Origin: Sandaracinaceae bacterium
Lineage (GTDB): Bacteria > Myxococcota_A > Polyangia > Polyangiales > Sandaracinaceae
Direction: 5' to 3'
Length of the DNA stretch: 34,989 nt
Assembly: GCA_050331215.1 (NCBI GenBank)
Contig: JBHJHB010000117.1
Span: forward strand, 64,001 to 98,989
Part shown: positions 2,222-34,989 of the stretch, piece after piece
How positions within the stretch are numbered: the stretch's first letter is position 1
Layout of the letters: each line of letters begins with the position of its first letter
The notes under the pieces: model-generated
What the model was told of the DNA's origin: nothing
The model's input: the letters and a program-made list of their open reading frames with translations, nothing else
Databases searched by the model: none
Position numbers and translations under genes: made by a program

Positions 2222-3013
2222 GTGGCCCTCGACGTGACGAGCGCGGTCGACGTGGCAGCGGTCGAGGCGGCGATCGGCGGCCTCTATGGCGGCCCGCTGC
2301 CCGAGGCGTCCGGGGTGCTCCACGTGGTCGCCGTCGCGCCGGAGGTCGATGACCTCCGGGTGATCCGCATCAACGAGGAGGCGCCGAAGAGCCCCACGGA
2401 CTTCTTCCTGCTCAACCTGACCCGGGCCCGGGTGGACGGCATCGTCGTCACGGGGGCGATCCTCCGGGACGAGGCGGACCTGACGTACGACCTCCAGGGC
2501 CCCGGCCGCAGCTCCGAGGGCCTGTCCGCCTACCGGCGCGCCGTCGCACGGCGGGCCGGGCCGCCCCTCCTGCTGATCTTGACCCGCGGCCACCACCTGC
2601 CGGAGGACCACCCCGCCTACCACAGCTGGGCCGAGCCGGTCGTGTTCACGAGCGAGCGCGCCGTGCCCCCCCTCCGGCGGACGTTGCCCGCGCGCGTCGA
2701 CGTGGTCGGCGACCCTTCACCCTCCCTCGCGAGCGCCCTGGCGTACCTGGAGCGGCGCCGGGCGTGCCGGGCGGTCAGCGTCGAGGCGGGCCCGAGCGTC
2801 GCGGCGGACCTCTACCGGAGTGGCGGGGCGCCCAGCGTCGACGAGCTTCTCCTGAGCGAGTTCGAGGGGCAGCTGGCGCCGGGGGCGCGCGGCCGGCTGC
2901 TGGGCACCCGGAGCGCCGTGCTCGGGCCGCTGACGCCGGCCGGAGGGCCGACTGCGGTCGAGGAGGACAGCGGCCCCTGGCGCTTCAGCCGCCACGTCCG
3001 TCGAGCGCCCTAG
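2222..3013 (+). CDS. Hypothetical protein (263 aa) with no confidently recognised domain
   Basis: A long ORF with GTG start and GC3-rich codon usage consistent with neighbouring genes. It ends at the TAG (3011-3013) that lies inside the intergenic repeat element. Confidence 0.55.
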   Translation: MALDVTSAVDVAAVEAAIGGLYGGPLPEASGVLHVVAVAPEVDDLRVIRINEEAPKSPTDFFLLNLTRARVDGIVVTGAILRDEADLTYDLQGPGRSSEGLSAYRRAVARRAGPPLLLILTRGHHLPEDHPAYHSWAEPVVFTSERAVPPLRRTLPARVDVVGDPSPSLASALAYLERRRACRAVSVEAGPSVAADLYRSGGAPSVDELLLSEFEGQLAPGARGRLLGTRSAVLGPLTPAGGPTAVEEDSGPWRFSRHVRRAP

Positions 3014-3085
3014 GCACCTGTCTCAGCGATTCGTGCGCCGATGGCTCGCCGGGATGTGCCACTCCCTGCGGTTCCGGGTGACTAG
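3010..3085. repeat. MITE/REP-like intergenic element, short copy (76 bp), with terminal inverted repeats CTAGGCACC ... GGTGACTAG
   Basis: The element fills the whole convergent gap between the stop of the 2222..3013 gene (TAG at 3011-3013) and the stop of the 3082..3615 gene (CTA at 3082-3084). Its left 26 bp (ctaggcacctgtctcagcgattcgtg) and right ~50 bp recur as a reverse complement at 18324..18489. Confidence 0.7.
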
Positions 3086-3615
3086 CCGCCGTGGTCGTCC
3101 AGGAACTGCTGGAGGCTCTGGTTGACGCGCTCGAGGTTGGGCGTGATCAGCCCGACGATGAACTGCTCGAGCTTGGGCCGCAGGCCGCCCGCGAGGAAGC
3201 TCGGCACCCCCGGCACCGTGGCGAGGTCGATCGCCAGGTCCCCGTCCAGCACCACCCGGGTGTGCTCGACGCCGTCCGCGACGAACCGGTTGACGCCCCC
3301 GCAGGTGACGCTGTCGGTGAAGATGCGGAGCTTCAGCCTCCAGTGAACCGCGCCCTCCGCGTCCTTCCAGTGGGCGAAGTCGTCCCAGCGGAGCATCTCC
3401 GGCTTGAGGAAGCCTCGCGCGAAGAACGGCACGTCACGGTCGGCGATCCACTCGTTGTGGATCTTGATCTCGCCGGGGGCGACGTCCTCCCGGGTCTTCT
3501 GGACGATCGCCTTGACGTCGGGGATGTAGGCCGCGATCTCGGGGAGGCGGTCCCGGTAGGCGGCGTACACGGCCTCCTGCGGGTGCGAGATGCGAGACTC
3601 ACTGAAGATGCGCAT
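3082..3615 (-). CDS. Hypothetical protein (177 aa), possibly with an SRPBCC/START-like fold (weak)
   Basis: A clean ORF with ATG start at 3615, divergent from the 3654 gene with only 38 bp between the two starts. I recognise no diagnostic motif. Confidence 0.55.
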   Translation of the reverse strand: MRIFSESRISHPQEAVYAAYRDRLPEIAAYIPDVKAIVQKTREDVAPGEIKIHNEWIADRDVPFFARGFLKPEMLRWDDFAHWKDAEGAVHWRLKLRIFTDSVTCGGVNRFVADGVEHTRVVLDGDLAIDLATVPGVPSFLAGGLRPKLEQFIVGLITPNLERVNQSLQQFLDDHGG

Positions 3616-7932: not shown

Positions 7933-10623
7933 TCAATACTCGACGCGTACGCCGCCCTGGACGAGGAAGGGGCGGTTCGGGCGCGCCCCGAACGGCCGGG
8001 TCGAGACGATCCGCTGCGTGAAGGTCAGGTTCTCGCCCCGGACGTAGACCCGCAGGTTCTCGAAGACCTGCAGGTACACCGTCGCGTCGAGCAGGAAATA
8101 GGGCTGCGTCTTCGTCTCGAGGCCGTCGCCGTCGACGTCGGTCCCATCGCCGATGTCCGACTCCGGGGTGCCCCTCCCCGCCTGCTCCCACATCGACGAC
8201 ACGAAGGACCCGCTGATCGAGGCCCCCGCCCTCTCCCCCTCCACGCCCGCCTGCAGCGTGAGCTGGTGCGGCGGGATGTAGGGGATGCGGTCGCCGACCC
8301 GGAAGTTGCCGAGGAGCGGGTCGCCCGTGTCCTCGGCCGTCCGCAGCTCGGTGAACACGTAGGTGTAGGCGAGGCGGAGGGGAAAGGCGACCGAGCCGAC
8401 CGTCGGCCGGCTGTCCGCGGCCACCTCGGCGCCGAGCACGTTGGCGGCGCCCGCGTTGGTCTGCTGGCCGATCGCATCGTCCGGGCACCCGGTCGCGAAG
8501 CTGCAGATCACGGTCAGGTTGGAGTAGTCGTTGAAGAAGAAGATCGCCGACGCGCGGGTCCGGCTCTCCTCGTGGCGGTAGCGCACGCCCGCCTCGTACA
8601 GCACGGACCGCTCGGGCTCCGCGTCCCCGCCCGTGCTGGGCGCGGCCGGGCTGAAGCCCCGCTGGACCCCGCCCACGAGGGAGAGCCCGTCGATCAGCTC
8701 CCAGGCCGCCGAGATCCCCGGCAGGACGCCGACCTGCTGGTCGTCCCCCTGCGCCCCGGCGAGCCGGTCGAGGAACCGCGTCCAGATCAGCTCGAGGCGG
8801 ATGCCCGGGGTCACGGTCAGGCCTCGCCAGCGGAGCGTCCAGGCGGTGTAGGCGCTCACCGCGAAGGCCTCCGCCGTGTTGTCCGCGGTCTGCCCGAAGG
8901 TGTTGTCCTGCTCCTGGAGCACGCGCTCGTCGTCGAGGAGGAACTCGGCCTGGGTGTGGTCCCGGGTCACCGTGTCCCAGTGGAAGCGCGCCCCGAAGCG
9001 CGCCTGGTGCTCGACCTCCCCCGTGCCGAGGCGGAGCGTGGCGTCGCTCTGGATCCCCTGCGACGCATACCGCCGGCCGTTGTTGCCGATCAGGAGAGGC
9101 CGGGTCGGGTCGGACGAGGTCCCCTCCACGACCCGAAAGAAGGGCTCGTTGGTCGCCGTGTCGGGCCGAAGGAGCACGTCCCGCAGGTCCGCCCCGGCCA
9201 CCCCGTTCACCTTGAACCAGTCCCGGTCGAAGTCGTGGCGATAGGCGGTGGTTCGCAGCTGGAAGCCCTCGCCGACCTCGAGGGTCCAGCGAAGCTGGGC
9301 CTGGGTCCGCCACCAGCGCATGCGGTCGAGGCCGCTCGTCCCGTACCGCCGGTAGGGGCCGTCCCGGAAGTCGCCTTCGGTGAGCCCGAGGTACGTCTCG
9401 TGCGAGCTCTCCAGGGTGAGCCCGAGCCGCGCCTCCAGGGTCTGGTAGACGTTGTCCCCGGTCGCGCCGCGCACGTCCCCGCGCAAGATGATCTCGCCTC
9501 GGTCGAAGCCCGTGCTGCCGTTGCCGCCCGCGGGGAAGTCGAGGTTCTTGAAGCCGTCGCTGTGGAGGTAGAGGCCCTCGACCAGGAAGCCGCCCCACTC
9601 GTTCGAGGTGCCGCCGTAGGCGTGCGCGCGGCCGGTCAGGTAGCTGCCGAGGGAGAGGTCCACGCCCGCGTGCGGCTCCCGCGGGATCGGGCGGCTCCGC
9701 CAGTCGATCGCCCCCGCCACCAGGTACGGCCCGTAGGGCAGCGCGGCCGGGCCCAGGTAGACGTCCATGCCGACCATGCGGCCCAGGAGCGGAAAGAAGT
9801 AGGCGCTCGGGGCGCTGTAGGGGGCAGGGCCGAAGAGCACCCCGTCCTCCATCAAGGTGATCTTGCGGCTCCGCTGCGGGCTCACCCCGCGCATGCCGAT
9901 GTTCGGGCGAAGCCCGAAGCCGTCCTCCATCTGGACGTAGACGCCCGGAACCTGGAGCACCTGGGCGTGGGGGTCGTCGTAGCGGAAGCGCGCCAGCGCC
10001 TCCTCGTCCAGGCGGTAGACGCTCGGACCGAGGGGGTCCGGCTCCTCCGTATCGAGGGCGGCGGCCGCTACGGTGACCGCGACCTCCATGTCCTCGTCCT
10101 CGTCGTCGAGGATCTCGGCGAGCTCCGCGTCCTCGCCGACGCCCTCGGCGTCGCGCGCGGCGCCCTCCGCGTCGCGGTCGGTGCCGTCGTCGGACGGGAG
10201 GTCGCCCAGCACGTCGTCGTCGGAGAGCTCCCCCAGCGCATCGTCACCCGGGCCCGCGGCCTCCCCCGGCGCGTCGTCGCCCGGCGCGTCGCCGTGGGGG
10301 GGCGCGCCCGCCACGTCGCTACCGGGCGCGTCGCCGGGGGGAGGCGCGCCCGGCGCGTCGTCGCCCGGCGCGTCATCGCCCGGGGGCTCGCCCGCCACGT
10401 CGTCGTTCGGGGGCTCGCCCGGCACGTCGTCCGGGCGGTCGGTCTCGGCGCCGCCCCTCGAGCCATCCTCCTCGGCGGGGCCGTCGGGACGGTCGCCCCC
10501 GGCGCGCTCGACGCCCGCGTCAGCGTCGGGCTGACCCAGCGCCCGGGGGGCGGGGAAGCACAGCGCCGGGACGCACAGCGCCGAGACGCACAGCGCCACG
10601 GCCACCGCCCAGCCCCGCAGCAC
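7933..10623 (-). CDS. TonB-dependent outer-membrane receptor with an unusual acidic low-complexity N-terminal extension
   Basis: The plug domain is recognisable (PGVYVQMEDGFGLRPNIGMRGVSPQRSRKITLMEDGVLFGPAPY) and is followed by a long beta-barrel ending ...GGVRVEY. I chose the GTG at 10623 as the start. It gives the signal peptide VLRGWAVAVALCVSALCVPALCFPAPRALG and avoids a 79-bp same-strand overlap with the upstream HTTM gene. The ORF track's ATG at 10725 is the alternative. About 150 aa of D/E/G/P-rich repeats (GDDAPG-like) lie between the signal peptide and the plug. Confidence 0.85.
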   Translation of the reverse strand: MLRGWAVAVALCVSALCVPALCFPAPRALGQPDADAGVERAGGDRPDGPAEEDGSRGGAETDRPDDVPGEPPNDDVAGEPPGDDAPGDDAPGAPPPGDAPGSDVAGAPPHGDAPGDDAPGEAAGPGDDALGELSDDDVLGDLPSDDGTDRDAEGAARDAEGVGEDAELAEILDDEDEDMEVAVTVAAAALDTEEPDPLGPSVYRLDEEALARFRYDDPHAQVLQVPGVYVQMEDGFGLRPNIGMRGVSPQRSRKITLMEDGVLFGPAPYSAPSAYFFPLLGRMVGMDVYLGPAALPYGPYLVAGAIDWRSRPIPREPHAGVDLSLGSYLTGRAHAYGGTSNEWGGFLVEGLYLHSDGFKNLDFPAGGNGSTGFDRGEIILRGDVRGATGDNVYQTLEARLGLTLESSHETYLGLTEGDFRDGPYRRYGTSGLDRMRWWRTQAQLRWTLEVGEGFQLRTTAYRHDFDRDWFKVNGVAGADLRDVLLRPDTATNEPFFRVVEGTSSDPTRPLLIGNNGRRYASQGIQSDATLRLGTGEVEHQARFGARFHWDTVTRDHTQAEFLLDDERVLQEQDNTFGQTADNTAEAFAVSAYTAWTLRWRGLTVTPGIRLELIWTRFLDRLAGAQGDDQQVGVLPGISAAWELIDGLSLVGGVQRGFSPAAPSTGGDAEPERSVLYEAGVRYRHEESRTRASAIFFFNDYSNLTVICSFATGCPDDAIGQQTNAGAANVLGAEVAADSRPTVGSVAFPLRLAYTYVFTELRTAEDTGDPLLGNFRVGDRIPYIPPHQLTLQAGVEGERAGASISGSFVSSMWEQAGRGTPESDIGDGTDVDGDGLETKTQPYFLLDATVYLQVFENLRVYVRGENLTFTQRIVSTRPFGARPNRPFLVQGGVRVEY
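10070..10460. repeat. In-frame imperfect tandem DNA repeats inside the TonB-receptor gene, encoding the acidic DDxPG(E/A)PP low-complexity linker
   Basis: Variants of ggcgcgtcgtcgcccggcgcgtc recur many times on the plus strand. On the minus strand the translation is ...PGDDAPGDDAPGAPPPGDAPGSDVAGAPPHGDAPGDDAPGEAAGPGDD.... A separate 15-bp x3 repeat (gcacagcgccgNgac, about 10557-10605) encodes part of the signal peptide. Confidence 0.7.
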
Positions 10624-10646
10624 CCGCGCCCCGATGCACCTCCGGC

Positions 10647-12050
10647 TCACCGTCGCCCGGTCCTCGCGTAGGCAGGGCGGCCCCCCGCGGGGAGCGGCGG
10701 CCCCTCCGGGGCGGCCGCGATCCACGTGGCCGGCAGCACGGATGGGTGCACCTCGGTCAGGTCCACGTCGGGGTCGATCAGCCGCGCCCGCGGGCGCCCG
10801 TTCAGCGATGCCCAGGCATCCACCCGCACCTCCACGCCCCGCTCGCCCCGGGCCTCGAGGTCCCCCGCGATCCGGTGGGCGAGCTGAACGATCAGGTCCG
10901 GCTGACCGCTCATCTCACGCTCCTGGTGGAGGGTGAGGTACTGGTCGGGGCGCAGGTAGCGCTCCGCCGGGTGGTCGGCGGTCCGCACCCGATAGACCAC
11001 GCTCCCGCTCTTCTGACGCACCATCACGCGCCAGCTGAAGCGCATCCCCTGCTCGTGCCAGAGGACGTCGCCGCCGTAGGCATGAGCGCGGAGCGGGATC
11101 GCGACTTGGAGGCCGGCCCAGAGAGCCAGCGCGAGCACCGCGGGCCGGCGCAGGCGGACGGCCTCGGCGGGCGCGCCGAGGCTCTTGTCCCGTGCCTGCC
11201 GCCAGCCGAAGCGCCGCGCGAGGCTCCGGGGCCAGGAGGGGTCGAAGAACACCAGCGCGAAGCCGCTCATCAACCACGGGAACATGCCGATGTTGAACAG
11301 CACGCCGGTCGCCGCGTGGAAGGCGAGCACGACGGCGAGGGCGAAGGGTCGGGACCTGCGCCAGAGGAGCCAGAGCGGGATGGTCAGGTCGTAGAGGAAG
11401 CCGGCCCAGCTCATCGTCAGGGCGAGCCACGCGTCGTCCATCCACGGGCCGACGACGGCCAGGTCCGACCGGGAGGCGAGCCAGATCCCGAGCGGCTGCC
11501 CGTGGAGCAGCCAGTCCGGCTGCAGCTTGGCCAGCGCGGCGAACACGTACACCACGCCGACCTGGAAGCGCAGCGCCCAGGTCATCCAGGCGGGCAGGGT
11601 CCGCACCCGGATCGACGGCCGGAGCCAGGCGTCCACGGAGCCCGCCCGGTGGAGCGGGAGGACCGCCAGCAGCGCCGCCAGCAGGCTCACCAGCACGTAG
11701 TGGTTGAGGTAGAAGGTGACGTCGAGCAGCTCGACGTACGCGAACACCGCGAGGAACACGACCGTCGCCACCCGGTACAGCGCGCCGACGGCGATGGCGA
11801 GGGCGCTCACCGCGAGCACGGCGAACAGCGCGTAGAGCACGGGCCCGGGCGGGGTGGCGACCCAGTCGAACCCGGGGTAGTGGAAGGCGAAGGTCGGCTC
11901 GAGGTAGAAGGTCTCGACCCAGCCCGACAGCACCGTCCGGGCCACCGCCGCGAGCAGCAGCAGCCCGAAGATCACGCGGAACGCCACGAGGCCCGCGACG
12001 TCCCACGGCTCCTCGAGGCGCCGCCGGATGGCGGCGATGGCGCGAGGCAC
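10647..12050 (-). CDS. HTTM-domain (vitamin K-dependent gamma-carboxylase-like) integral membrane protein
   Basis: The N-terminal half is polytopic and hydrophobic, with the HTTM-type pattern (FRVIFGLLLL..., the W-rich helices WLLHGQPLGIW and MFPWLMSGFALVFFDPSW). A soluble C-terminal domain follows. The start is GTG at 12050, 8 nt after the imelysin stop. Confidence 0.7.
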   Translation of the reverse strand: MPRAIAAIRRRLEEPWDVAGLVAFRVIFGLLLLAAVARTVLSGWVETFYLEPTFAFHYPGFDWVATPPGPVLYALFAVLAVSALAIAVGALYRVATVVFLAVFAYVELLDVTFYLNHYVLVSLLAALLAVLPLHRAGSVDAWLRPSIRVRTLPAWMTWALRFQVGVVYVFAALAKLQPDWLLHGQPLGIWLASRSDLAVVGPWMDDAWLALTMSWAGFLYDLTIPLWLLWRRSRPFALAVVLAFHAATGVLFNIGMFPWLMSGFALVFFDPSWPRSLARRFGWRQARDKSLGAPAEAVRLRRPAVLALALWAGLQVAIPLRAHAYGGDVLWHEQGMRFSWRVMVRQKSGSVVYRVRTADHPAERYLRPDQYLTLHQEREMSGQPDLIVQLAHRIAGDLEARGERGVEVRVDAWASLNGRPRARLIDPDVDLTEVHPSVLPATWIAAAPEGPPLPAGGRPAYARTGRR

Positions 12051-16975: not shown

Positions 16976-18310
16976 GTGCGGCCGCCGACGCCCCCCTCAT
17001 ACTCCGGCCCCGTGACCGCGCCCGCGCTCCCCCGCCGGAACCTCCCGCTCTACCTGGGCGCGCGCGTGGCGGCAGCCACGGGCATCCAGATCCAGAGCGT
17101 CGCGATCGGCCTCCAGGTCTACGAGCGCACGGGGAGCACGCTCGACCTCGGCAACGTCGGCCTCGCCCAGTTCGTGCCCCTCGCCCTCTTGAGCGCCTAC
17201 GCCGGGAGCTTCGCCGACCGCCACGACCGCCGCACGATCCTGACCGCCTGCCGGGTGCTCTACGCCGTCGGCAGCCTCGCCCTCGCGTCGCTCTGCTTCG
17301 CCCCGGGATGGGGGGTGGGCCCCATCTACGTCGTCCTGGTGGTGCTCGGCGCGACGCGGGCCTTCTCGTGGCCGGCGAGCTCGGCGCTCCTTCCCAACGT
17401 GGTCTCTCTGGCCGAGCTCCCGCGAGCGATCGCCCTCAGCTCGATCGCGTTCCAGGTCGCCACGGTGAGCGGCCCGGCCCTGAGCGGCATCCTCTACGCG
17501 GCCGCCGGGCCCGAGGGCGCGTACCTCGCGTCGGCGGTCCTCGAGGGGACGAGCGCGGTGCTCGTGTTCCTCCTGCGACCCGCCCCCCGGCGTGGCCCCG
17601 TCCGGCCCACCGAGCCCTGGCCTCGGCAGTTCCTCTCCGGGCTGCGCTACGTGTTCCGGGAGAAGATCGTCCTCGGCGCGCTCAGCCTCGACCTGTTCGC
17701 GGTGCTCCTGGGCGGGGCGGTGGCGTTGATGCCCGTCTACGCCACGGACATCCTGGGCGTCGGGGCGACCGGGTTCGGCTGGCTCCGGGCCGCGCCAGCC
17801 GTCGGCGCCGTGGTCGTCGCGATCTTCCTGGCGTCGCGGCCGATCCGACGCCGCGCGGGGCTCTACCTGTTCCTCGGGGTCGGGCTGTTCGGCCTCGCCA
17901 CGATCGTGTTCGGGCTCTCCCGGAGCTTCGGCCTGTCGCTGATCGCCCTCGTGATCCTGGGCGGCGCGGACATGGTCAGCGTGGTGATCCGCCGCAGCCT
18001 GATCCAGCTCTGGACGCCCGACGCGATGAGGGGTCGGGTGAGCGCCGTCGACATGGTCTTCGTCGGGGCGAGCAACGAGCTCGGCGAGATGGAGTCGGGC
18101 TACAGCGCGCGGCTCCTGGAGGTAGGCGTCGGCCTCGAGAAGGAGAAGGCGGTCGTCGCCGCCGTGGTCCTCGGCGGGGTCGGCACCCTGATGGTGACGG
18201 GGCTGTGGGCCTGGGCATTCCCGAGCCTCCGGCGCACCGACCGCCTCCAGGGGCGCGACGGGGCGCGCCCGACGCCGGTGCCGCCCGACGGCGCGCCAGG
18301 CGGCCGCTAG
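16976..18310 (+). CDS. MFS transporter (EntS/ENTS-like 12-TM efflux family)
   Basis: The protein has 12 hydrophobic segments and a conserved MFS loop motif (GSFADRHDRR; also LASRPIRRR). The exact start is uncertain; it is either the ATG at 16976 or an internal GTG. Confidence 0.75.
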   Translation: MRPPTPPSYSGPVTAPALPRRNLPLYLGARVAAATGIQIQSVAIGLQVYERTGSTLDLGNVGLAQFVPLALLSAYAGSFADRHDRRTILTACRVLYAVGSLALASLCFAPGWGVGPIYVVLVVLGATRAFSWPASSALLPNVVSLAELPRAIALSSIAFQVATVSGPALSGILYAAAGPEGAYLASAVLEGTSAVLVFLLRPAPRRGPVRPTEPWPRQFLSGLRYVFREKIVLGALSLDLFAVLLGGAVALMPVYATDILGVGATGFGWLRAAPAVGAVVVAIFLASRPIRRRAGLYLFLGVGLFGLATIVFGLSRSFGLSLIALVILGGADMVSVVIRRSLIQLWTPDAMRGRVSAVDMVFVGASNELGEMESGYSARLLEVGVGLEKEKAVVAAVVLGGVGTLMVTGLWAWAFPSLRRTDRLQGRDGARPTPVPPDGAPGGR

Positions 18311-18323
18311 CCGCAGCCTGCTG

Positions 18324-18489
18324 CTAGTCACCTGGAACAGCAGTGAGTGGTCAATCCCGGCGAGCGATCGGCGCCCGAATCAAGGAACGACGACGAGGAA
18401 TACTTCGCGTCTTTCGAGGAGAAGTGACGCCGAGTCGGGCGTCGAGGGCCGGCGGAATTTTGCCACGAATCGCTGAGACAGGTGACTAG
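18324..18489. repeat. MITE/REP-like intergenic element, long copy (166 bp), in inverted orientation relative to copy 3010..3085
   Basis: 18324-18374 is the reverse complement of the right about 50 bp of the 3010..3085 copy, with about 8 mismatches. 18464-18489 is the reverse complement of its left 26 bp, with 1 mismatch. The roughly 90-bp internal segment (18375-18463) is absent from the short copy. Both ends are CTAG(G/T)CACC inverted repeats. The element supplies the stop codon of the Rieske gene (18486-18488). Confidence 0.7.
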
Positions 18490-18854
18490 GGCTCGATGAA
18501 GGCCTGGCCGTCCTCCTCGACGACGGTGAACGCCCGGATCCCGGTCGGCTTCTTGCCGAGGGCGATCAGCGCGCGGCTCCAGGTCGGCACCTTCACGCCG
18601 ATCACGCCCGGAACCCAATCGAGGTTCTCCCCGGTCTTCAGGTCGTACTTGGAGTTGTGGAGCGGACAGATGATCGCCCCGTCCTCCACCGTCCCGCGAT
18701 CGAGGGGGACCGGGAGGTGAGCGCACCGGTTCTCCACGGCGCAGAGCGTCCCCCCGGCCCGCACCACCAGCGCGGTGGTCCCCGCGACCTTCACCTTGTG
18801 AATGGCGCCCTCGGCGAAGTCCGAGCTGGCCCCGATCGATACGCGATCCGTCAT
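18486..18854 (-). CDS. Rieske (2Fe-2S) domain protein, small ferredoxin-like subunit
   Basis: The protein has the CAHLPVPL ... CPLHNSKY boxes (C-x-H ... C-x-x-H Rieske ligands). The start is chosen at the ATG at 18854 (MTDRVSIG...). The longer ORF to 18932 would overlap the upstream gene. Confidence 0.75.
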   Translation of the reverse strand: MTDRVSIGASSDFAEGAIHKVKVAGTTALVVRAGGTLCAVENRCAHLPVPLDRGTVEDGAIICPLHNSKYDLKTGENLDWVPGVIGVKVPTWSRALIALGKKPTGIRAFTVVEEDGQAFIEP

Positions 18855-18922
18855 GCGGCAAGGGTGGACCAGCGCGCCCGGGTGCCACAAGGGGGCTCGC
18901 GCCGGGGCGGCGCCGGCCGCCG

Positions 18923-20074
18923 TCACCCCCACAGCTCGTCGTAGCTCGCCCCCCAGCCGAGGACCGCGCGGCGCGCCAGCACGGGGTAGGCGGCGGCGCC
19001 CAGGACCTGGTGGACGCGGTGGGCGAGCCGGCTGTCCATCCGCTCGAGCGGCACCCCGTGCCCCTGGAGCCGGAAAGCCGAGAAGCCCGGCTGGTCCGCG
19101 AACAGGACCCGGAGGCCCGTGACCTCGCGGCGCCTCATCAGCGCCCCAGCGATCGCCTTGCCGGGGCTGAGGCCGAACCCGGTCGCGATGCTCGACGCGA
19201 CGCCGAGGGTGCTCATCGCCGCCCCGACCAGGTCCCGCCGGGGGTCGAGGCGAAAGTCGAGCATCTCCACGCCGGGCTGGGGCTGCTGGTGTGAGGTCGG
19301 CGCGCCGAAGATCCGGACCAGGGTGTGGCCGAGGTCGTGGGCGGACATCGGGCTCATCCAGCGGTCGTCGCGCATGCCCGGCCCGCCGAGGCGGATCCGA
19401 TGGGCGAGCACGACGCGGCCGACGAAGTCCCGACCCGCCGCGGCGGCGAGGCCCCCCTCGGCGGCCGCTCGGGCCAGCTGGGCCAGCATCGACCGCGCCT
19501 CGGGGTCGTCGGACCAGAGGGCGCCGGCCGTGGTCGCCGCCCCCGTCGGGTCCCCGTCCGTCGCCTGAACGAAGGGGGTCGCTGGCTCGGCCCGGGCCTC
19601 CACCGGTACGGCGCCGAGGGCGCGGTAGAACGCGCCGAGCGCCGGCACGGCCTCGGCCACCGTGACGTCCAGGGTGCCGGACGGCCCCTTCAGCACGAGC
19701 TTCCGCGACAGCACGCTGTCCTTCACGTCCACGCCCACGAGGTCCGCGTGGGCGACGGCGCCTCGCGTCCCGTTCAGGGTCAGGGGGCCCGCGATCGACG
19801 ACCAGCCGCTGACGACGGTCCGACGGTCGGTGAGCGCGACCGCGATCCGATGCTCGTTCCCCTTCGGCGTGTCCCGCCAGAGCACCGACGCGAGGACCCG
19901 CTCCCCCGCCAGGTGATCGCGGCCGACCCCGGCCCCCGCAACGGCCTCCGCGCCGGCCCGCGCCGCCCCATCGAACAGCGCCAGCGTGAGCTCCGAGCTG
20001 TCGAACATGCTGGGCCGACGCTCGATCGGCCGGAGCGTGCGGTGCACGAGGGCGCGGAGGGGCGAGTCGCTCAT
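18923..20074 (-). CDS. Hypothetical protein (383 aa), co-oriented with and immediately upstream of the Rieske gene
   Basis: A clean ORF with ATG at 20074. I recognise no motif. Confidence 0.5.
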   Translation of the reverse strand: MSDSPLRALVHRTLRPIERRPSMFDSSELTLALFDGAARAGAEAVAGAGVGRDHLAGERVLASVLWRDTPKGNEHRIAVALTDRRTVVSGWSSIAGPLTLNGTRGAVAHADLVGVDVKDSVLSRKLVLKGPSGTLDVTVAEAVPALGAFYRALGAVPVEARAEPATPFVQATDGDPTGAATTAGALWSDDPEARSMLAQLARAAAEGGLAAAAGRDFVGRVVLAHRIRLGGPGMRDDRWMSPMSAHDLGHTLVRIFGAPTSHQQPQPGVEMLDFRLDPRRDLVGAAMSTLGVASSIATGFGLSPGKAIAGALMRRREVTGLRVLFADQPGFSAFRLQGHGVPLERMDSRLAHRVHQVLGAAAYPVLARRAVLGWGASYDELWG

Positions 20075-32162: not shown

Positions 32163-34526
32163 TCAGAGGAGCTCCTCGCAGCCCGGGAGGATGTAGTCGA
32201 TCCGCTCGAGCTGGCGACAGAGCGCAGCGTCGATCCGTGCCCCCTCCCCCGGCACCACGGGTGCCTCCTCCTCCGTACCGGCCTCGAGCCACGCGCCGCG
32301 GTCCGCCGCCCCGAGGTACTGCCCGATCAGCCCGCGGAGGTAGCGAGTCGCGACCGGGTGGACCGAGCCGTCGTCGATCTGGTTCTGCTCGCCGGGATCG
32401 GCCTGGAGGTTGAACAGCGACCACGTGAGGTTGCCGCGAACGACGAGCTTGAAGCCGGCGCCCGTGACCACTCGCCGGTCGTCGAGCTTGTCGCTGAAGG
32501 CGACCGCGGGCCCGGGCCGCGGCACCCCACGGGCCATCGACAGCAGGCTGCGACCCTCGAAGGCCTCGGGCGCGGCCACGTTGAGGGCCTCGAGGACCGT
32601 CGGGGCGATGTCGAGGGTGCTGACGGTCGGGGCGAGCCGACCCGTCGGGATGACGCCCGGCCACCTCAGCAGCAACGGCACGTGGAGCAGCTCCTGGTAG
32701 ACGCTGTGGCCATGCCCCCAGCTCCCGTGCTCGTGAAACTCTTCCCCGTGGTCGCTCGTGATCACGAAGAGCACCTGCTCCCGGAGGCCGAGCTCGGCGA
32801 GACGCTCGAGGAAGGGCCCGAAGTGCCGGTCGTGGTACGTGATCTCCCCGTCGTGGAGGGCCTCGAGGCGCTCCCGGTCCCGCGGCGTGAAGTAGCCCTC
32901 CCCCTCCGTCTTGGCCTCACCGAGCTGGTGGCCCGTCCGGCGCGGCCGCACCCGGCCCTCGTAGGGCGCGGCGTCGTACAACGCGAGCAGGTCCTCCGGC
33001 GGGTCGTAGGGGACGTGGGGGTCGATCGTCTGGATGTACGCGAAGAACCGCTCCTCCCGATGGGCCTCGATCCACCGCAAGGCCTCACCGAACACACGCT
33101 CCGCTTCTGTCCTCCGCTCCTCGCGAATGTAGTTCGTGTAGTGGTCCCACCCCTGGTCGAAGCCGAAGCGGTCCGACACGTAGCCGTTGGCGATGAAGCT
33201 GCCGGTCGCGAACCCCTCGCCGTCGAGCACCTCGCTCAGCATCAGCACCCGGTCGGGGAGGCGGCTGGTGTCCGATTTGGTCCGGTGGCTCATCGGGCTC
33301 AGGGACGCGAGGACCGAGGCGACCGCCGGCTTCGTCCAGTTCTCCGGCGACTGCGCGCGCTCGAACAGCGCCCCCTCTGCCGCGAAGGCGTCGAGGGCCG
33401 GCGTCTGAACGCGGCTGTCCGGGTTGTAGGCCTGGAGCTTCGACGCCCGGAGCGTGTCGATCAGGAGCAGGATGACGCTCGCCGCCGGCGCCTCGGGTGG
33501 CGGCGGCTCCTCCGCGCGTGGCACGAGCACCGTCGGCGCGGCGAAGGCGCCGCGCCCGGCGCCCTCCACCTCGAGCTCGAGGCGTACGACCTGACCGGCG
33601 AGCTCATCGAGCGGCAGCAGCCGGGGTGACCAGCTCTCCGTCAGCGGCTCGCGGAGGAGCTCCCGCTCCTGCCCTCCCTCCGGCCGAACCCGGATGGCGG
33701 CGCTCAGGCTCGCCCCGCGCACCTTGCCGAGCGACAGCGCGAGGTCCGCGTCTGGCGGGACCTCGAGGTACGAGCGAAGCCGGGTTCCCCCACCGAGGAC
33801 GAGGGCTCGCCGCGCCTCGCCGCCGACCTCCACCTCCCGCACGAGGTCCCGGGCGAGCGGCGCGGGAGGCGGGTCGGCGGGGGGGGCACCGCGGAACGCC
33901 CAGAGCGCGTCCACCTCGCAGGCCACCCCGTCCTGCGCCACGTTCGGGGCGCGCACCCGGACCACGTTCTCGCCGGCGTGGGTCAGCTCGGCCTCGACGG
34001 GGACGTCGACGTCGGTCGGCGCGCCTGCCGCCAGGGTGACCTCCCCGGCCGTCCGGCCGTTCACGTAGACGACCAGACGTCTCGCCTGGACCGGCCGCAG
34101 CCGGAACCGCAGCGTGAGCGGCCCGGCTGCGTCGAGGGTGAGGAACACCCGCGCGTCGGGCCCCATCCGCGTGAAGTCGCGCCCGTCGCTCGCGACGTCG
34201 CGGCCCCAGCCGCTGTGCCAGCGACCCATCGTCGCGTGGTGCCGGGCGGGCGTGCCGAAGTCGATGTACAGGCCACCCCGATCGCCGTCGGCGAGGTGGG
34301 CATGGGCCATCAGGTCGAGGTGAGTGCGGCTCGACGCGAGGGCCTCGCGGACCGGGTCGACCGGCGGCTCGGCGGGCGCCTCCGACCGCTCGACGGCCTC
34401 GGCCGGCTCCGGCTCCGGGGGCGCTGCCGAGGGGGGCTCTGCCGGCTCGCCGCCGCAGGCGGTCAGGCACGCCACGGCGAGGAAGGAGAGGACCGCGGTC
34501 CGGGTCTCGTGCCCGCGTCGCTTCAT
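32163..34526 (-). CDS. Sulfatase-like hydrolase/transferase (alkaline-phosphatase superfamily) lipoprotein with an about 340-aa N-terminal extension
   Basis: The signal and lipobox are MKRRGHETRTAVLSFLAVACLTA|CGG (ATG 34526; the alternative ATG is 34562). The sulfatase-fold core spans ILLLIDTLRASKL...TSDHGEEFHEHGSWGHGHS. I could not find a canonical C/S-x-P-x-R formylglycine motif. Confidence 0.75.
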   Translation of the reverse strand: MKRRGHETRTAVLSFLAVACLTACGGEPAEPPSAAPPEPEPAEAVERSEAPAEPPVDPVREALASSRTHLDLMAHAHLADGDRGGLYIDFGTPARHHATMGRWHSGWGRDVASDGRDFTRMGPDARVFLTLDAAGPLTLRFRLRPVQARRLVVYVNGRTAGEVTLAAGAPTDVDVPVEAELTHAGENVVRVRAPNVAQDGVACEVDALWAFRGAPPADPPPAPLARDLVREVEVGGEARRALVLGGGTRLRSYLEVPPDADLALSLGKVRGASLSAAIRVRPEGGQERELLREPLTESWSPRLLPLDELAGQVVRLELEVEGAGRGAFAAPTVLVPRAEEPPPPEAPAASVILLLIDTLRASKLQAYNPDSRVQTPALDAFAAEGALFERAQSPENWTKPAVASVLASLSPMSHRTKSDTSRLPDRVLMLSEVLDGEGFATGSFIANGYVSDRFGFDQGWDHYTNYIREERRTEAERVFGEALRWIEAHREERFFAYIQTIDPHVPYDPPEDLLALYDAAPYEGRVRPRRTGHQLGEAKTEGEGYFTPRDRERLEALHDGEITYHDRHFGPFLERLAELGLREQVLFVITSDHGEEFHEHGSWGHGHSVYQELLHVPLLLRWPGVIPTGRLAPTVSTLDIAPTVLEALNVAAPEAFEGRSLLSMARGVPRPGPAVAFSDKLDDRRVVTGAGFKLVVRGNLTWSLFNLQADPGEQNQIDDGSVHPVATRYLRGLIGQYLGAADRGAWLEAGTEEEAPVVPGEGARIDAALCRQLERIDYILPGCEELL

Positions 34527-34710
34527 GGCCGCGAAGATGCCGGATGGGATGCGCGTGCGCATCCCGCGAGCCGAAGGATGCGCGCAGACGAGGGATGCTT
34601 CGAGGGCGGCGGATGCGCGCGGGCGGGGTGGCCGCGGGCTCCGTCGCGAGAGTCGAGCCTCAGGAACCGAACGAGCGCCGATGTTCGTACGAGCCGATGT
34701 TCGGGGATTG

Positions 34711-34810
34711 TAAACCGTACTCGATGTTCAGGAACCGTAAACCGTACTAACCGGAAACCGTACTGGTAACCGTACTAACCGGAAACCGGTACTAACCGGA
34801 AACCGTACTG
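34711..34810. repeat. Direct-repeat array: about 7 copies of AACCG(G)TACT, with higher-order unit (T)AACCGGAAACCGTACT, preceded by three GATGTTC copies
   Basis: Read directly from the sequence: ...taaaccgtactcgatgttcaggaaccgtaaaccgtactaaccggaaaccgtactggtaaccgtactaaccggaaaccggtactaaccggaaaccgtactgg. The array is AT-richer than its surroundings and lies 150-280 bp upstream of the sulfatase-like gene start (minus strand). Confidence 0.8.
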
Positions 34811-34989
34811 GGTGAGGTCTTATCGGCCCACACTTATCAGCGGTGAACCCTCGGCGGCCTCTCGTCGGCGGCGGTCCCGCCGCCGTCCGCCGCCACCTCG
34901 CCGATTCCGGGCCCCTGAACCACACCTGAAGCACAGCCTCGGCGTCCGGCATGGCCCGTGCCCCGCGCCGAAGGGTGGGTCACCCCAAC

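Follow-up and report, generated by a model that had tools for sequence, protein, structure and literature searches.

A CTAG-bounded 166-bp palindrome in Sandaracinaceae, a probable IS630-type miniature inverted-repeat transposable element

The locus and its features

The DNA analyzed here, referred to as the window, is a stretch of 34,989 nucleotides from contig JBHJHB010000117.1 of a Sandaracinaceae bacterium (assembly GCA_050331215.1, positions 64,001 to 98,989 of the forward strand). At positions 18324-18489 it carries a 166-bp imperfect palindrome that has CTAG at both termini and lies between two genes converging on it, and a shorter relative of the palindrome lies at 3010-3085. Its terminal repeats, its insertion footprint, and its copies in related genomes indicate, with a probability that we place at about 85%, that the palindrome is a non-autonomous DNA transposon, that is, a miniature inverted-repeat transposable element (MITE), most likely mobilized in trans by an IS630-family (Tc1/mariner-type DDE) transposase. 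The features of the locus are as follows.

3010..3085: short, 76-bp, internally deleted copy, inverted relative to the long copy
16976..18310, plus strand: major facilitator superfamily (MFS) transporter gene, converging on the element; context (Pfam MFS_1, E=5.5e-34)
18324..18489: full-length putative MITE copy, subfamily 1; the consensus (CT-rich) strand is the minus strand of the window
18324..18327: left CTAG, putative regenerated target site, of which TA is the presumed 2-bp target duplication
18324..18358: terminal arm of about 35 bp, the consensus "right arm"; presumed transposase-binding inverted repeat CTAGTCACCTGGAACAGCAG..., pairing with 18455-18489
18359..18454: conserved core of about 96 bp, common to subfamilies with different arms; its purine-rich strand is the plus strand of the window, and it contains the 23-mer CGAATCAAGGAACGACGACGAGG used for the genome scan
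18374..18463: 90-bp segment absent from the short copy
18374..18381, minus strand: direct repeat GATTCGGG, bordering on one side the segment that the short copy lacks
18395..18416: central mini-hairpin GAGGAATACTTCGCGTCTTTCG, decayed; elsewhere in the family it reads GAAATACC-TTT-GGTATTC or a compensated form of this
18426..18443, plus strand: local hairpin GACGCC-GAGTCG-GGCGTC; when the whole element is folded, its bases pair with the opposite arm
18455..18489: terminal arm of about 35 bp, the consensus "left arm" ...CACGAATCGCTGAGACAGGTGACTAG
18464..18471, minus strand: direct repeat GATTCGTG, the other edge of the deletion
18486..18489: right CTAG, putative regenerated target site; the minus-strand Rieske gene has its TAG stop codon here (CTA at 18486-18488)
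18486..18932, minus strand: Rieske [2Fe-2S] protein gene, converging on the element; context (Pfam Rieske, E=4.7e-16)

The boundaries of the palindrome, its terminal CTAGs, and the likeness of its arms to the copy at 3010-3085 had been described in a first-pass annotation made from the letters of the window alone, and all of these were reproduced. The coordinates are exact, and the minus strand of 18324-18489 aligns with 3010-3085 at 25 of 26 positions over the first arm and at 43 of 50 (86%) over the second. The two arms are also the longest and most exact inverted matches returned by the repeat finder (I1 and I19). That two copies in GC-rich, low-complexity sequence might be alike by chance, a concern raised in the same annotation, can be dismissed: a 21-mer is common to both window copies, not one of 100 shuffled windows held even one such match, and more than 60 homologous copies are found elsewhere. 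The description of the copy as AT-richer is borne out by a G+C content of 59.6% for the 166-bp element as a whole, compared with 73.5% for the window. The copy matches the family profile over model positions 1-166 (nhmmer, E=5.7e-56) and is 89.8% identical to a metagenome copy (L002:5147-5312, where L numbers denote collected loci of related sequence). It is full length and somewhat decayed, with about 90% identity to other copies and a mutated central mini-hairpin.

Distribution of the family and origin of the short copy

Copies outside the window were collected by two scans. The first was confined to the termini and applied a degenerate 26-nt pattern, matching all four window arms, to JGI metagenome contigs; it yielded 12 copies on 10 contigs, all of the long type. 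Two of these are complete and exactly 166 bp in length (L002:5147-5312 and L008:2038-2203). The other 10 are cut by contig ends, as is expected of a multicopy repeat in short-read assemblies, and each of them runs from the arm into the interior of the long copy; a short-type junction was found in none of the 10. The second scan used the internal 23-mer CCTCGTCGTCSTTCCTTGATTCG on one genome per species and detected 50 copies in five Sandaracinaceae or Polyangia metagenome-assembled genomes (MAGs), namely 32 in MFD02416.bin.1.293 (a long-read MAG of at least 9.9 Mb), 8 each in Sandaracinaceae LLY-WYZ-13_1 and Polyangia 3_bin.16, and 1 each in Sandaracinaceae SGMAG-31 and MFD05684.bin.2.216. A profile search of the loci gave one copy per 8-kb locus, and the copies measure 164-167 bp except where a contig end truncates them or where, in single cases, indels have altered the length (to 171 bp at most, in L033). 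The total is 62 copies outside the window plus the two within it, from five MAGs and three metagenomes, with unrelated flanks. Twelve copies at separate places in MFD02416.bin.1.293 are identical, which points to recent activity.

A scan of the genome collection with the exact 21-mer common to the window copies gave no match; CACCTG in these two copies corresponds to CACCCG in most of the family. When the element was compared with a plasmid collection by blastn, one 28-nt match at chance level was returned, and the open-access literature contained no relevant prior description in myxobacteria, Sandaracinus, or Sorangium. The element is therefore best regarded as a family previously undescribed in the open-access literature searched, apparently of a well-known kind, the bacterial IS630-type MITE.

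The first-pass annotation had suggested that the short copy could have arisen by deletion, in which case the long one may be the more complete, and had proposed determining whether other copies are long and whether the interior is independently conserved. On both counts the suggestion is upheld: all 12 terminus-sampled copies are long and have a well conserved interior, and the 50 genomic copies are likewise of the long type, nearly all of them 164-167 bp. The internal segment had been considered unique to the long copy, which is correct within the window, but the other members of the family have it as their conserved core. Its extent also needs slight adjustment, from 18375-18463 (89 bp) to 18374-18463 (90 bp). 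In the alignment of the long and short copies the gap can be placed in two ways, owing to the 8-bp direct repeats GATTCGTG and GATTCGGG at its edges, and copy L033 has a duplication of GATTC at the same spot as the direct repeat 18374..18381. In about 460 kb of collected related sequence the short-type junction occurs only at window position 3028. The long form is therefore canonical, and the 76-bp copy derives from it by a single 90-bp deletion between GATTCGTG and GATTCGGG, probably through slippage or microhomology. No significant fold is predicted for the 76-bp copy (z=-0.1 versus z=-7.1 for the long copy), which has thus lost the ability to fold.

A common core with different arms

The family comprises three subfamilies, and a variant of the first, which have a common core and differ in the terminal 35 bp or so. 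The arm reads CTAGTCACCCGTCTCAGCG... in subfamily 1, to which the window copies belong, CTAGTCCCCCGTATCCGTG... in subfamily 2, and CTAGTGTCCTGAGTC... in subfamily 3, and within each subfamily both arms stay mutually complementary. Between subfamilies the core is 82-95% identical, as measured over its left half, which lies outside the search pattern, versus 40-70% for the arms. In the family alignment, 97-98% of the cells in the terminal helices (columns 3-19 with 157-173) form pairs, and subfamilies differ there by double changes. The apex of the core is pyrimidine-rich and is arranged as CACTCCTCCTCGA, mini-hairpin, CCTCGTCGTCGTTCC; one strand carries CCUCCU, which resembles an anti-Shine-Dalgarno sequence, and the opposite strand carries GGAGGAG.

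Three further CTAG-bounded families have the same length and centre as the window family and different ends. These are family X (CTAGATGTCC, 166 bp; L019:6493-6658, L021:5395-5560, L028:1986-2151, and L036:5502-5667), family Y (CTAGGTGGCTG, 170 bp; L022:2701-2870 and L049:1730-1899), and family Z (CTAGTGCGAG, 166 bp; L059:3714-3879). At their centre a CCTCCTCGA motif precedes an AT-rich mini-hairpin of 6 bp that shows compensatory changes, after which comes CCTCGTCG or CCTGCGGGG. A weak similarity links family X to the window core at 18412-18453 (78.6% over 42 nt). In the simplest account the arms would have been exchanged by recombination or template switching with different IS630-family elements, and selection for mobility by whichever transposase was present would have followed.

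A small open reading frame (ORF) of 53 codons, open between the terminal TAGs, was considered and set aside for lack of conservation, since the indels that separate the subfamilies displace its frame.

Insertion at CTAG

Nearly all element ends that can be examined are CTAG, set beside unrelated flanks, and the few deviations are single-base changes in older copies. The footprint of insertion can be followed in one MAG, where 97-bp and 88-bp repeats normally abut as ...ACAAGCATGCTAGGACCGGCGCC... at six paralogous empty sites. The filled site, at L034, reads ...ACAAGCATG-CTAG-[162 bp]-CTAG-GACCGGCGCC...; this comparison, of one filled site with six paralogous (not orthologous) empty ones, gives a difference of 162 bp plus a second CTAG, which indicates insertion exactly at CTAG with the CTAG regenerated on both sides. 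IS630-family elements integrate at TA and duplicate it (PMC2170065), and IS630 itself is cited as favouring a TA within 5'-CTAG-3' (Tenzen & Ohtsubo 1991, as cited in PMC2170065). The target duplication of the present element is presumed to be TA (2 bp) rather than CTAG (4 bp). Three copies with unequal outer bases (L012, L027, and L043), one end being CTAG and the opposite end CTAC or CTAA, fit a duplication of TA.

Since each insertion doubles the local targets, arrays and pile-ups arise at shared CTAGs. In the array of L025, successive modules of 88, 96, 167, 166, and 174 bp overlap by a common CTAG. As many as five different CTAG-bounded modules (88, 97, 166, 166-170, and 174 bp) lie head to tail in the arrays observed at L025:4917-5591, L059:3287-3879, L021:5395-5899, and L035:3054-3396. 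Of the smaller units in these arrays, the 88-bp one has 16-bp inverted ends (CTAGTACCGGCGCCCG), and the 97-bp one is without inverted ends and holds a perfect hairpin, TACGACGGACCG-GAAGTT-CGGTCCGTCGTA.

One flank was seen to recur immediately after CTAG. It reads GGAGTGTCTTCAAA(G/C)G, followed by the GC-rich hairpin GGGCGGGCC-GTAA-GGCCCGACC and then by CGTCCTCGT/GCACGT-type repeats, and lies at L004:283-360 and 1587-1662, L009:119-196 and 2636-2711, and L058:953-980, once without a preceding element (L004:283). It may correspond to conserved sequence at the 3' end of a family of paralogous genes, in which a CTAG would be available as a target.

Relation to IS630-family transposons

The link to a transposase comes from insertion sequences with ends like those of the element, located in the MAG of L028 and the metagenome of L006. 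At L028:800-1989, a 1190-bp insertion sequence bounded by CTAG encodes a protein of 367 amino acids, which matches NCBIfam NF033545 "IS630 family transposase" with 287 bits (cut-off 100) and contains Pfam DDE_3 and helix-turn-helix (HTH) domains. The end of this insertion sequence, CTAGTCCCCCGGATCCCTGATTTCGA, is identical at 22 of 26 positions to the subfamily-2 MITE end from the same MAG. On contig L006, the 3' end of one IS630-family copy, a complete second copy (1378 bp), and a MITE copy abut at shared CTAGs, and the end of the first insertion sequence, CTAGTCACCCGGATCAGGGG, is 15-17/20 identical to subfamily-1 arms (16/20 when compared with the right arm of the window copy). The complete insertion sequence, L006:173-1550, has inverted ends of about 32 bp (CTAGATGACCTCGGCGGGAATAGCGATCCGGT) and a transposase in two ORFs on the minus strand (935-1465 and 210-827), which could represent either a frameshift pseudogene or programmed frameshifting. 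The assignment of the pneumococcal MITE RUP to IS630-Spn1 was made on the same kind of evidence (PMC2229807).

The element is thus 166 bp long and non-coding, has terminal inverted repeats and dispersed copies, and constitutes the difference between filled and empty sites, as is expected of a MITE; its ends resemble those of an IS630-family insertion sequence in the same genome or metagenome (22/26 and 15-17/20), as is expected of the IS630 type. We infer from these ends that transposases of the L028 and L006 type may be the ones that actually move it. In the proposed mechanism, the transposase would bind the inverted terminal arms of about 35 bp and excise the element, which would then be inserted at the TA of a 5'-CTAG-3' with duplication of the TA. 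Every copy would thereby be bounded by CTAG on both sides, and one rare CTAG would become two with each insertion. The regenerated CTAG would account for copies adjoining one another, other CTAG-bounded elements, and the insertion sequences themselves, and the targeting of CTAG for copies often lying exactly on TAG stop codons in a 73% G+C genome.

Several observations weigh against this assignment. The core is more conserved than the arms, which is the reverse of the usual MITE pattern and is left unexplained by plain selfish transposition. The insertion sequence matching subfamily 1 is a truncated 3' end on a short metagenome contig (L006), and in its 15-17/20 match the first 11-12 nt are common to all arms. 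For the genome of the window, of which only the window was examined, no transposase and no further copies are visible. The palindromic CTAG context makes 2-bp TA and 4-bp CTAG duplications indistinguishable, and L044, with CTAT at both ends, would fit a 4-bp duplication.

The palindromic context and copy L044 bear on whether the element might be a MITE of an IS5/Harbinger-type family that duplicates the whole 4-bp CTAG. The IS5 group makes 4-bp YTAR duplications, so CTAG at both ends fits such an origin equally well, and L044 can be counted in its favour. However, all of the full-length or partial insertion sequences found next to the elements, or resembling them, code for IS630-family transposases, and none of the IS5 type came to light in the related sequence of about 460 kb. 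The arms match IS630-type ends, and the three copies with unequal outer bases argue for TA; an IS5-type origin is in our estimate highly improbable. The arrays of different modules, being intergenic palindromes in alternating orientations, are superficially similar to bacterial interspersed mosaic elements (BIMEs; PMC2817692), in which case the element would be a repetitive extragenic palindromic (REP)-like sequence spread by a REP-associated tyrosine transposase (RAYT; IS200/IS605-like tyrosine/HUH) or by recombination. With its 166 bp and 35-bp inverted arms, though, the element is unlike REP units of 20-40 bp, and its arrays are joined exactly at shared CTAGs, as expected when one insertion after another uses a regenerated target. 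In the loci, IS630 transposases with matching ends are present but no RAYT-like gene was noticed, and we assign this origin an extremely small probability.

The conservation of the core raises a further alternative, in which the core of about 95 bp is a functional module that has repeatedly been re-fitted with the ends of different IS630-family transposons. A functional core would explain the 82-95% core identity with unrelated arms, the common design of families X, Y, and Z, and the compensated central hairpin, and it could serve as a binding site for a host factor or a transposase accessory protein, or as an RNA element. We consider this alternative unlikely, and an IS630-type MITE remains the favored description.

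Predicted fold and the terminator question

The first-pass annotation had drawn attention to an internal hairpin, GACGCC-GAGTC-GGGCGTC, followed by a GGAATTTTG tract, as a possible small terminator or structured RNA, and had recommended structure prediction. The hairpin is present at 18426-18443, with its stem divided as GACGCC-GAGTCG-GGCGTC, and 13 nt (18444-18456) separate this stem from the T-run, which is absent from subfamily 2. Structure prediction did return a strong fold, but for the whole 166-bp element, as one long imperfect hairpin (z=-7.1 for the plus and z=-5.7 for the minus strand), and not for the small hairpin as a folding unit. The terminator role was not borne out: no terminator-like site and no promoter are predicted within the element, it has no Rfam match at the gathering threshold or at E<=10, and its orientation is unbiased, with 7 versus 6 copies in the two orientations between co-directional genes, 3 between convergent, and 4 between divergent genes (counting copies for which both neighbors are callable within 500 bp).

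These results also bear on the broader proposal that the element is primarily a functional structured RNA or terminator, either a small RNA gene or a cis-acting 3' hairpin, whose structure is under selection and which has spread by duplication. The strength of the fold on both strands speaks for it, as do the alignment, with pairing in 97.9% of cells and compensatory double changes at 10 pairs, the central mini-hairpin kept by compensatory changes across families, the purine-rich strand, which folds better by about 21 kcal/mol on average, and the conservation of the core across subfamilies. Inverted symmetry and covariation are nevertheless expected whatever the role of an RNA, because the two ends would be bound by transposase, and the covariation traces to a few subfamily splits and not to many independent events. 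The absence of an orientation bias, the copies between divergent genes, the lack of a predicted U-tract terminator, and the lack of an Rfam match argue further against an RNA role, and the precise CTAG footprint together with a burst of 12 identical copies is the behavior of a transposon. We therefore regard a primary RNA function as quite improbable and retain the MITE. According to the predicted fold, MFS and Rieske mRNAs that included the element by co-transcription would each carry a stable 3' hairpin.

Stop codons, CTAG scarcity, and neighboring genes

The reading frame of the Rieske gene ends ...EEDGQAFIEP*, with its stop codon within the right-hand CTAG; the element does provide this stop, as the first-pass annotation had stated, and it lies next to the MFS gene, with 13 nt between the MFS stop and its left end and not the 14 bp given there. 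The two CTAGs of the 76-bp copy are likewise the stops of convergent ORFs, 2222-3013 (plus strand) and 3082-3615 (minus strand). The Rieske protein is 100% identical to one that NCBI lists under "MAG: Sandaracinaceae bacterium". The nearest Rieske homologue outside the source MAG is 61% identical and has a different gene context (L001), which indicates that the lineage is thinly sampled.

CTAG is scarce in this DNA. The 35-kb window contains 8, compared with 83 expected from composition (an about 10-fold under-representation) or 38 by a Markov estimate, and TA occurs 316 times. Four of the 8 are the ends of the two elements; of those outside the elements, the one at 18307 overlaps the MFS stop, and the remaining three (3626, 5319, and 16323) are located where listed ORFs terminate. 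In the collected loci there is about 1 CTAG per 2.3 kb, and more than half are element ends. When counted in 60-codon windows, a stop codon is supplied by 8 of 94 element ends, versus 0-2 in control frames. The frequent landing on stops is explained by a C-TAG stop being one of the few places where CTAG survives, and by insertion regenerating the stop. That some ends supply a stop follows incidentally from the choice of CTAG as target; it is a minority outcome, not a designed function.

A general function in supplying a stop codon or a ribosome-binding site was rejected, with a stop at 8 of 94 ends and a candidate start at 10 of 94; these candidate starts are outward start codons within 15 nt of the end, and some belong to spurious antisense ORFs. 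In the outward direction, each arm finishes with purine-rich sequence that resembles a Shine-Dalgarno site (GGGTGA, GGGGGA, or CAGGACA), 4-6 nt short of the flank and just inside the CTAG; GGTGACT at window 18479-18485 is an example. Long predicted ORFs begin 0-13 nt beyond the element in L002, L008, L020, L027, L030, L056, and L061. One may speculate that an arm, with its outward GGGTGA or GGGGGA inside the CTAG, could replace a ribosome-binding site displaced by the insertion.

Use of the results and other features of the window

For annotation, the analysis identifies the two CTAG-bounded repeats of the window and explains why they lie exactly on stop codons. It also provides a 166-bp consensus for masking or annotating MAGs of Sandaracinaceae and Polyangia, in which the family visibly breaks contigs. 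It adds a probable myxobacterial IS630-type MITE with strict CTAG targeting, whose regenerated target builds head-to-tail arrays of different elements at shared CTAGs. The conserved core with apparently swapped, still complementary arms offers a natural case for transposase switching by non-autonomous elements. The results have no bearing on a long-standing open question.

Two other repeats were observed in the window. At 34728-34811, in the intergenic region upstream of a long minus-strand ORF (32163-34562), there is a run of AT-richer, degenerate tandem units (AACCGTACTAACCGGAAACCGTACTGG and variants) with a period of about 17-28 nt, which looks like repeated protein-binding sites such as iterons or operator repeats. 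At 10185-10431, inside the minus-strand ORF 7933-10725, repeats with periods of 27 and 42 nt (CGTCGTCG...GGGGGCTCGCCCG...) probably encode a low-complexity repeat region of the protein.

Comparison with known systems

Among described elements, RUP is similar in being a short (107 bp), non-coding, multicopy, intergenic inverted repeat that inserts at TA, has IS630-like ends, and tends to land in or beside insertion sequences (PMC2229807), and the assignment of its transposase is equally indirect. The two have no sequence relationship and differ in host, a Firmicute versus a myxobacterium; the present element is also longer (166 bp), needs CTAG where RUP accepts any TA, and is better conserved in its core than at its ends. 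IS630 and ISY100 insert at TA and duplicate it, as is presumed for the present element, and IS630 is cited for a preference for TA inside 5'-CTAG-3' (PMC2170065); the L028 and L006 insertion sequences that share MITE ends encode transposases of this family. IS630 and ISY100 are, in contrast, autonomous, 1.1-1.4 kb in length, and equipped with a transposase gene that the window element lacks.

The Correia/NEMIS repeats of Neisseria and the ERIC repeats of enterobacteria are likewise palindromic, MITE-like repeats of 100-160 bp with a terminal TA and transcripts that form long hairpins. Correia elements also exist in long and short forms, of about 155 and 107 bp, which differ by an internal block of 50 bp (PMC2229807). 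Both of those size classes are abundant, whereas the short form in the window is a single deletion derivative. Correia and ERIC elements are further set apart by documented effects on mRNA, through processing by RNase III/E, promoters, and a site for integration host factor (IHF); no cognate transposase has been established for Correia or ERIC. Although eukaryotic and unrelated in sequence, the Stowaway MITEs of plants, which are derived from Tc1/mariner elements, resemble the window element in being short, TA-targeting, and non-autonomous, and they are cross-mobilized by mariner-like transposases via their terminal inverted repeats.

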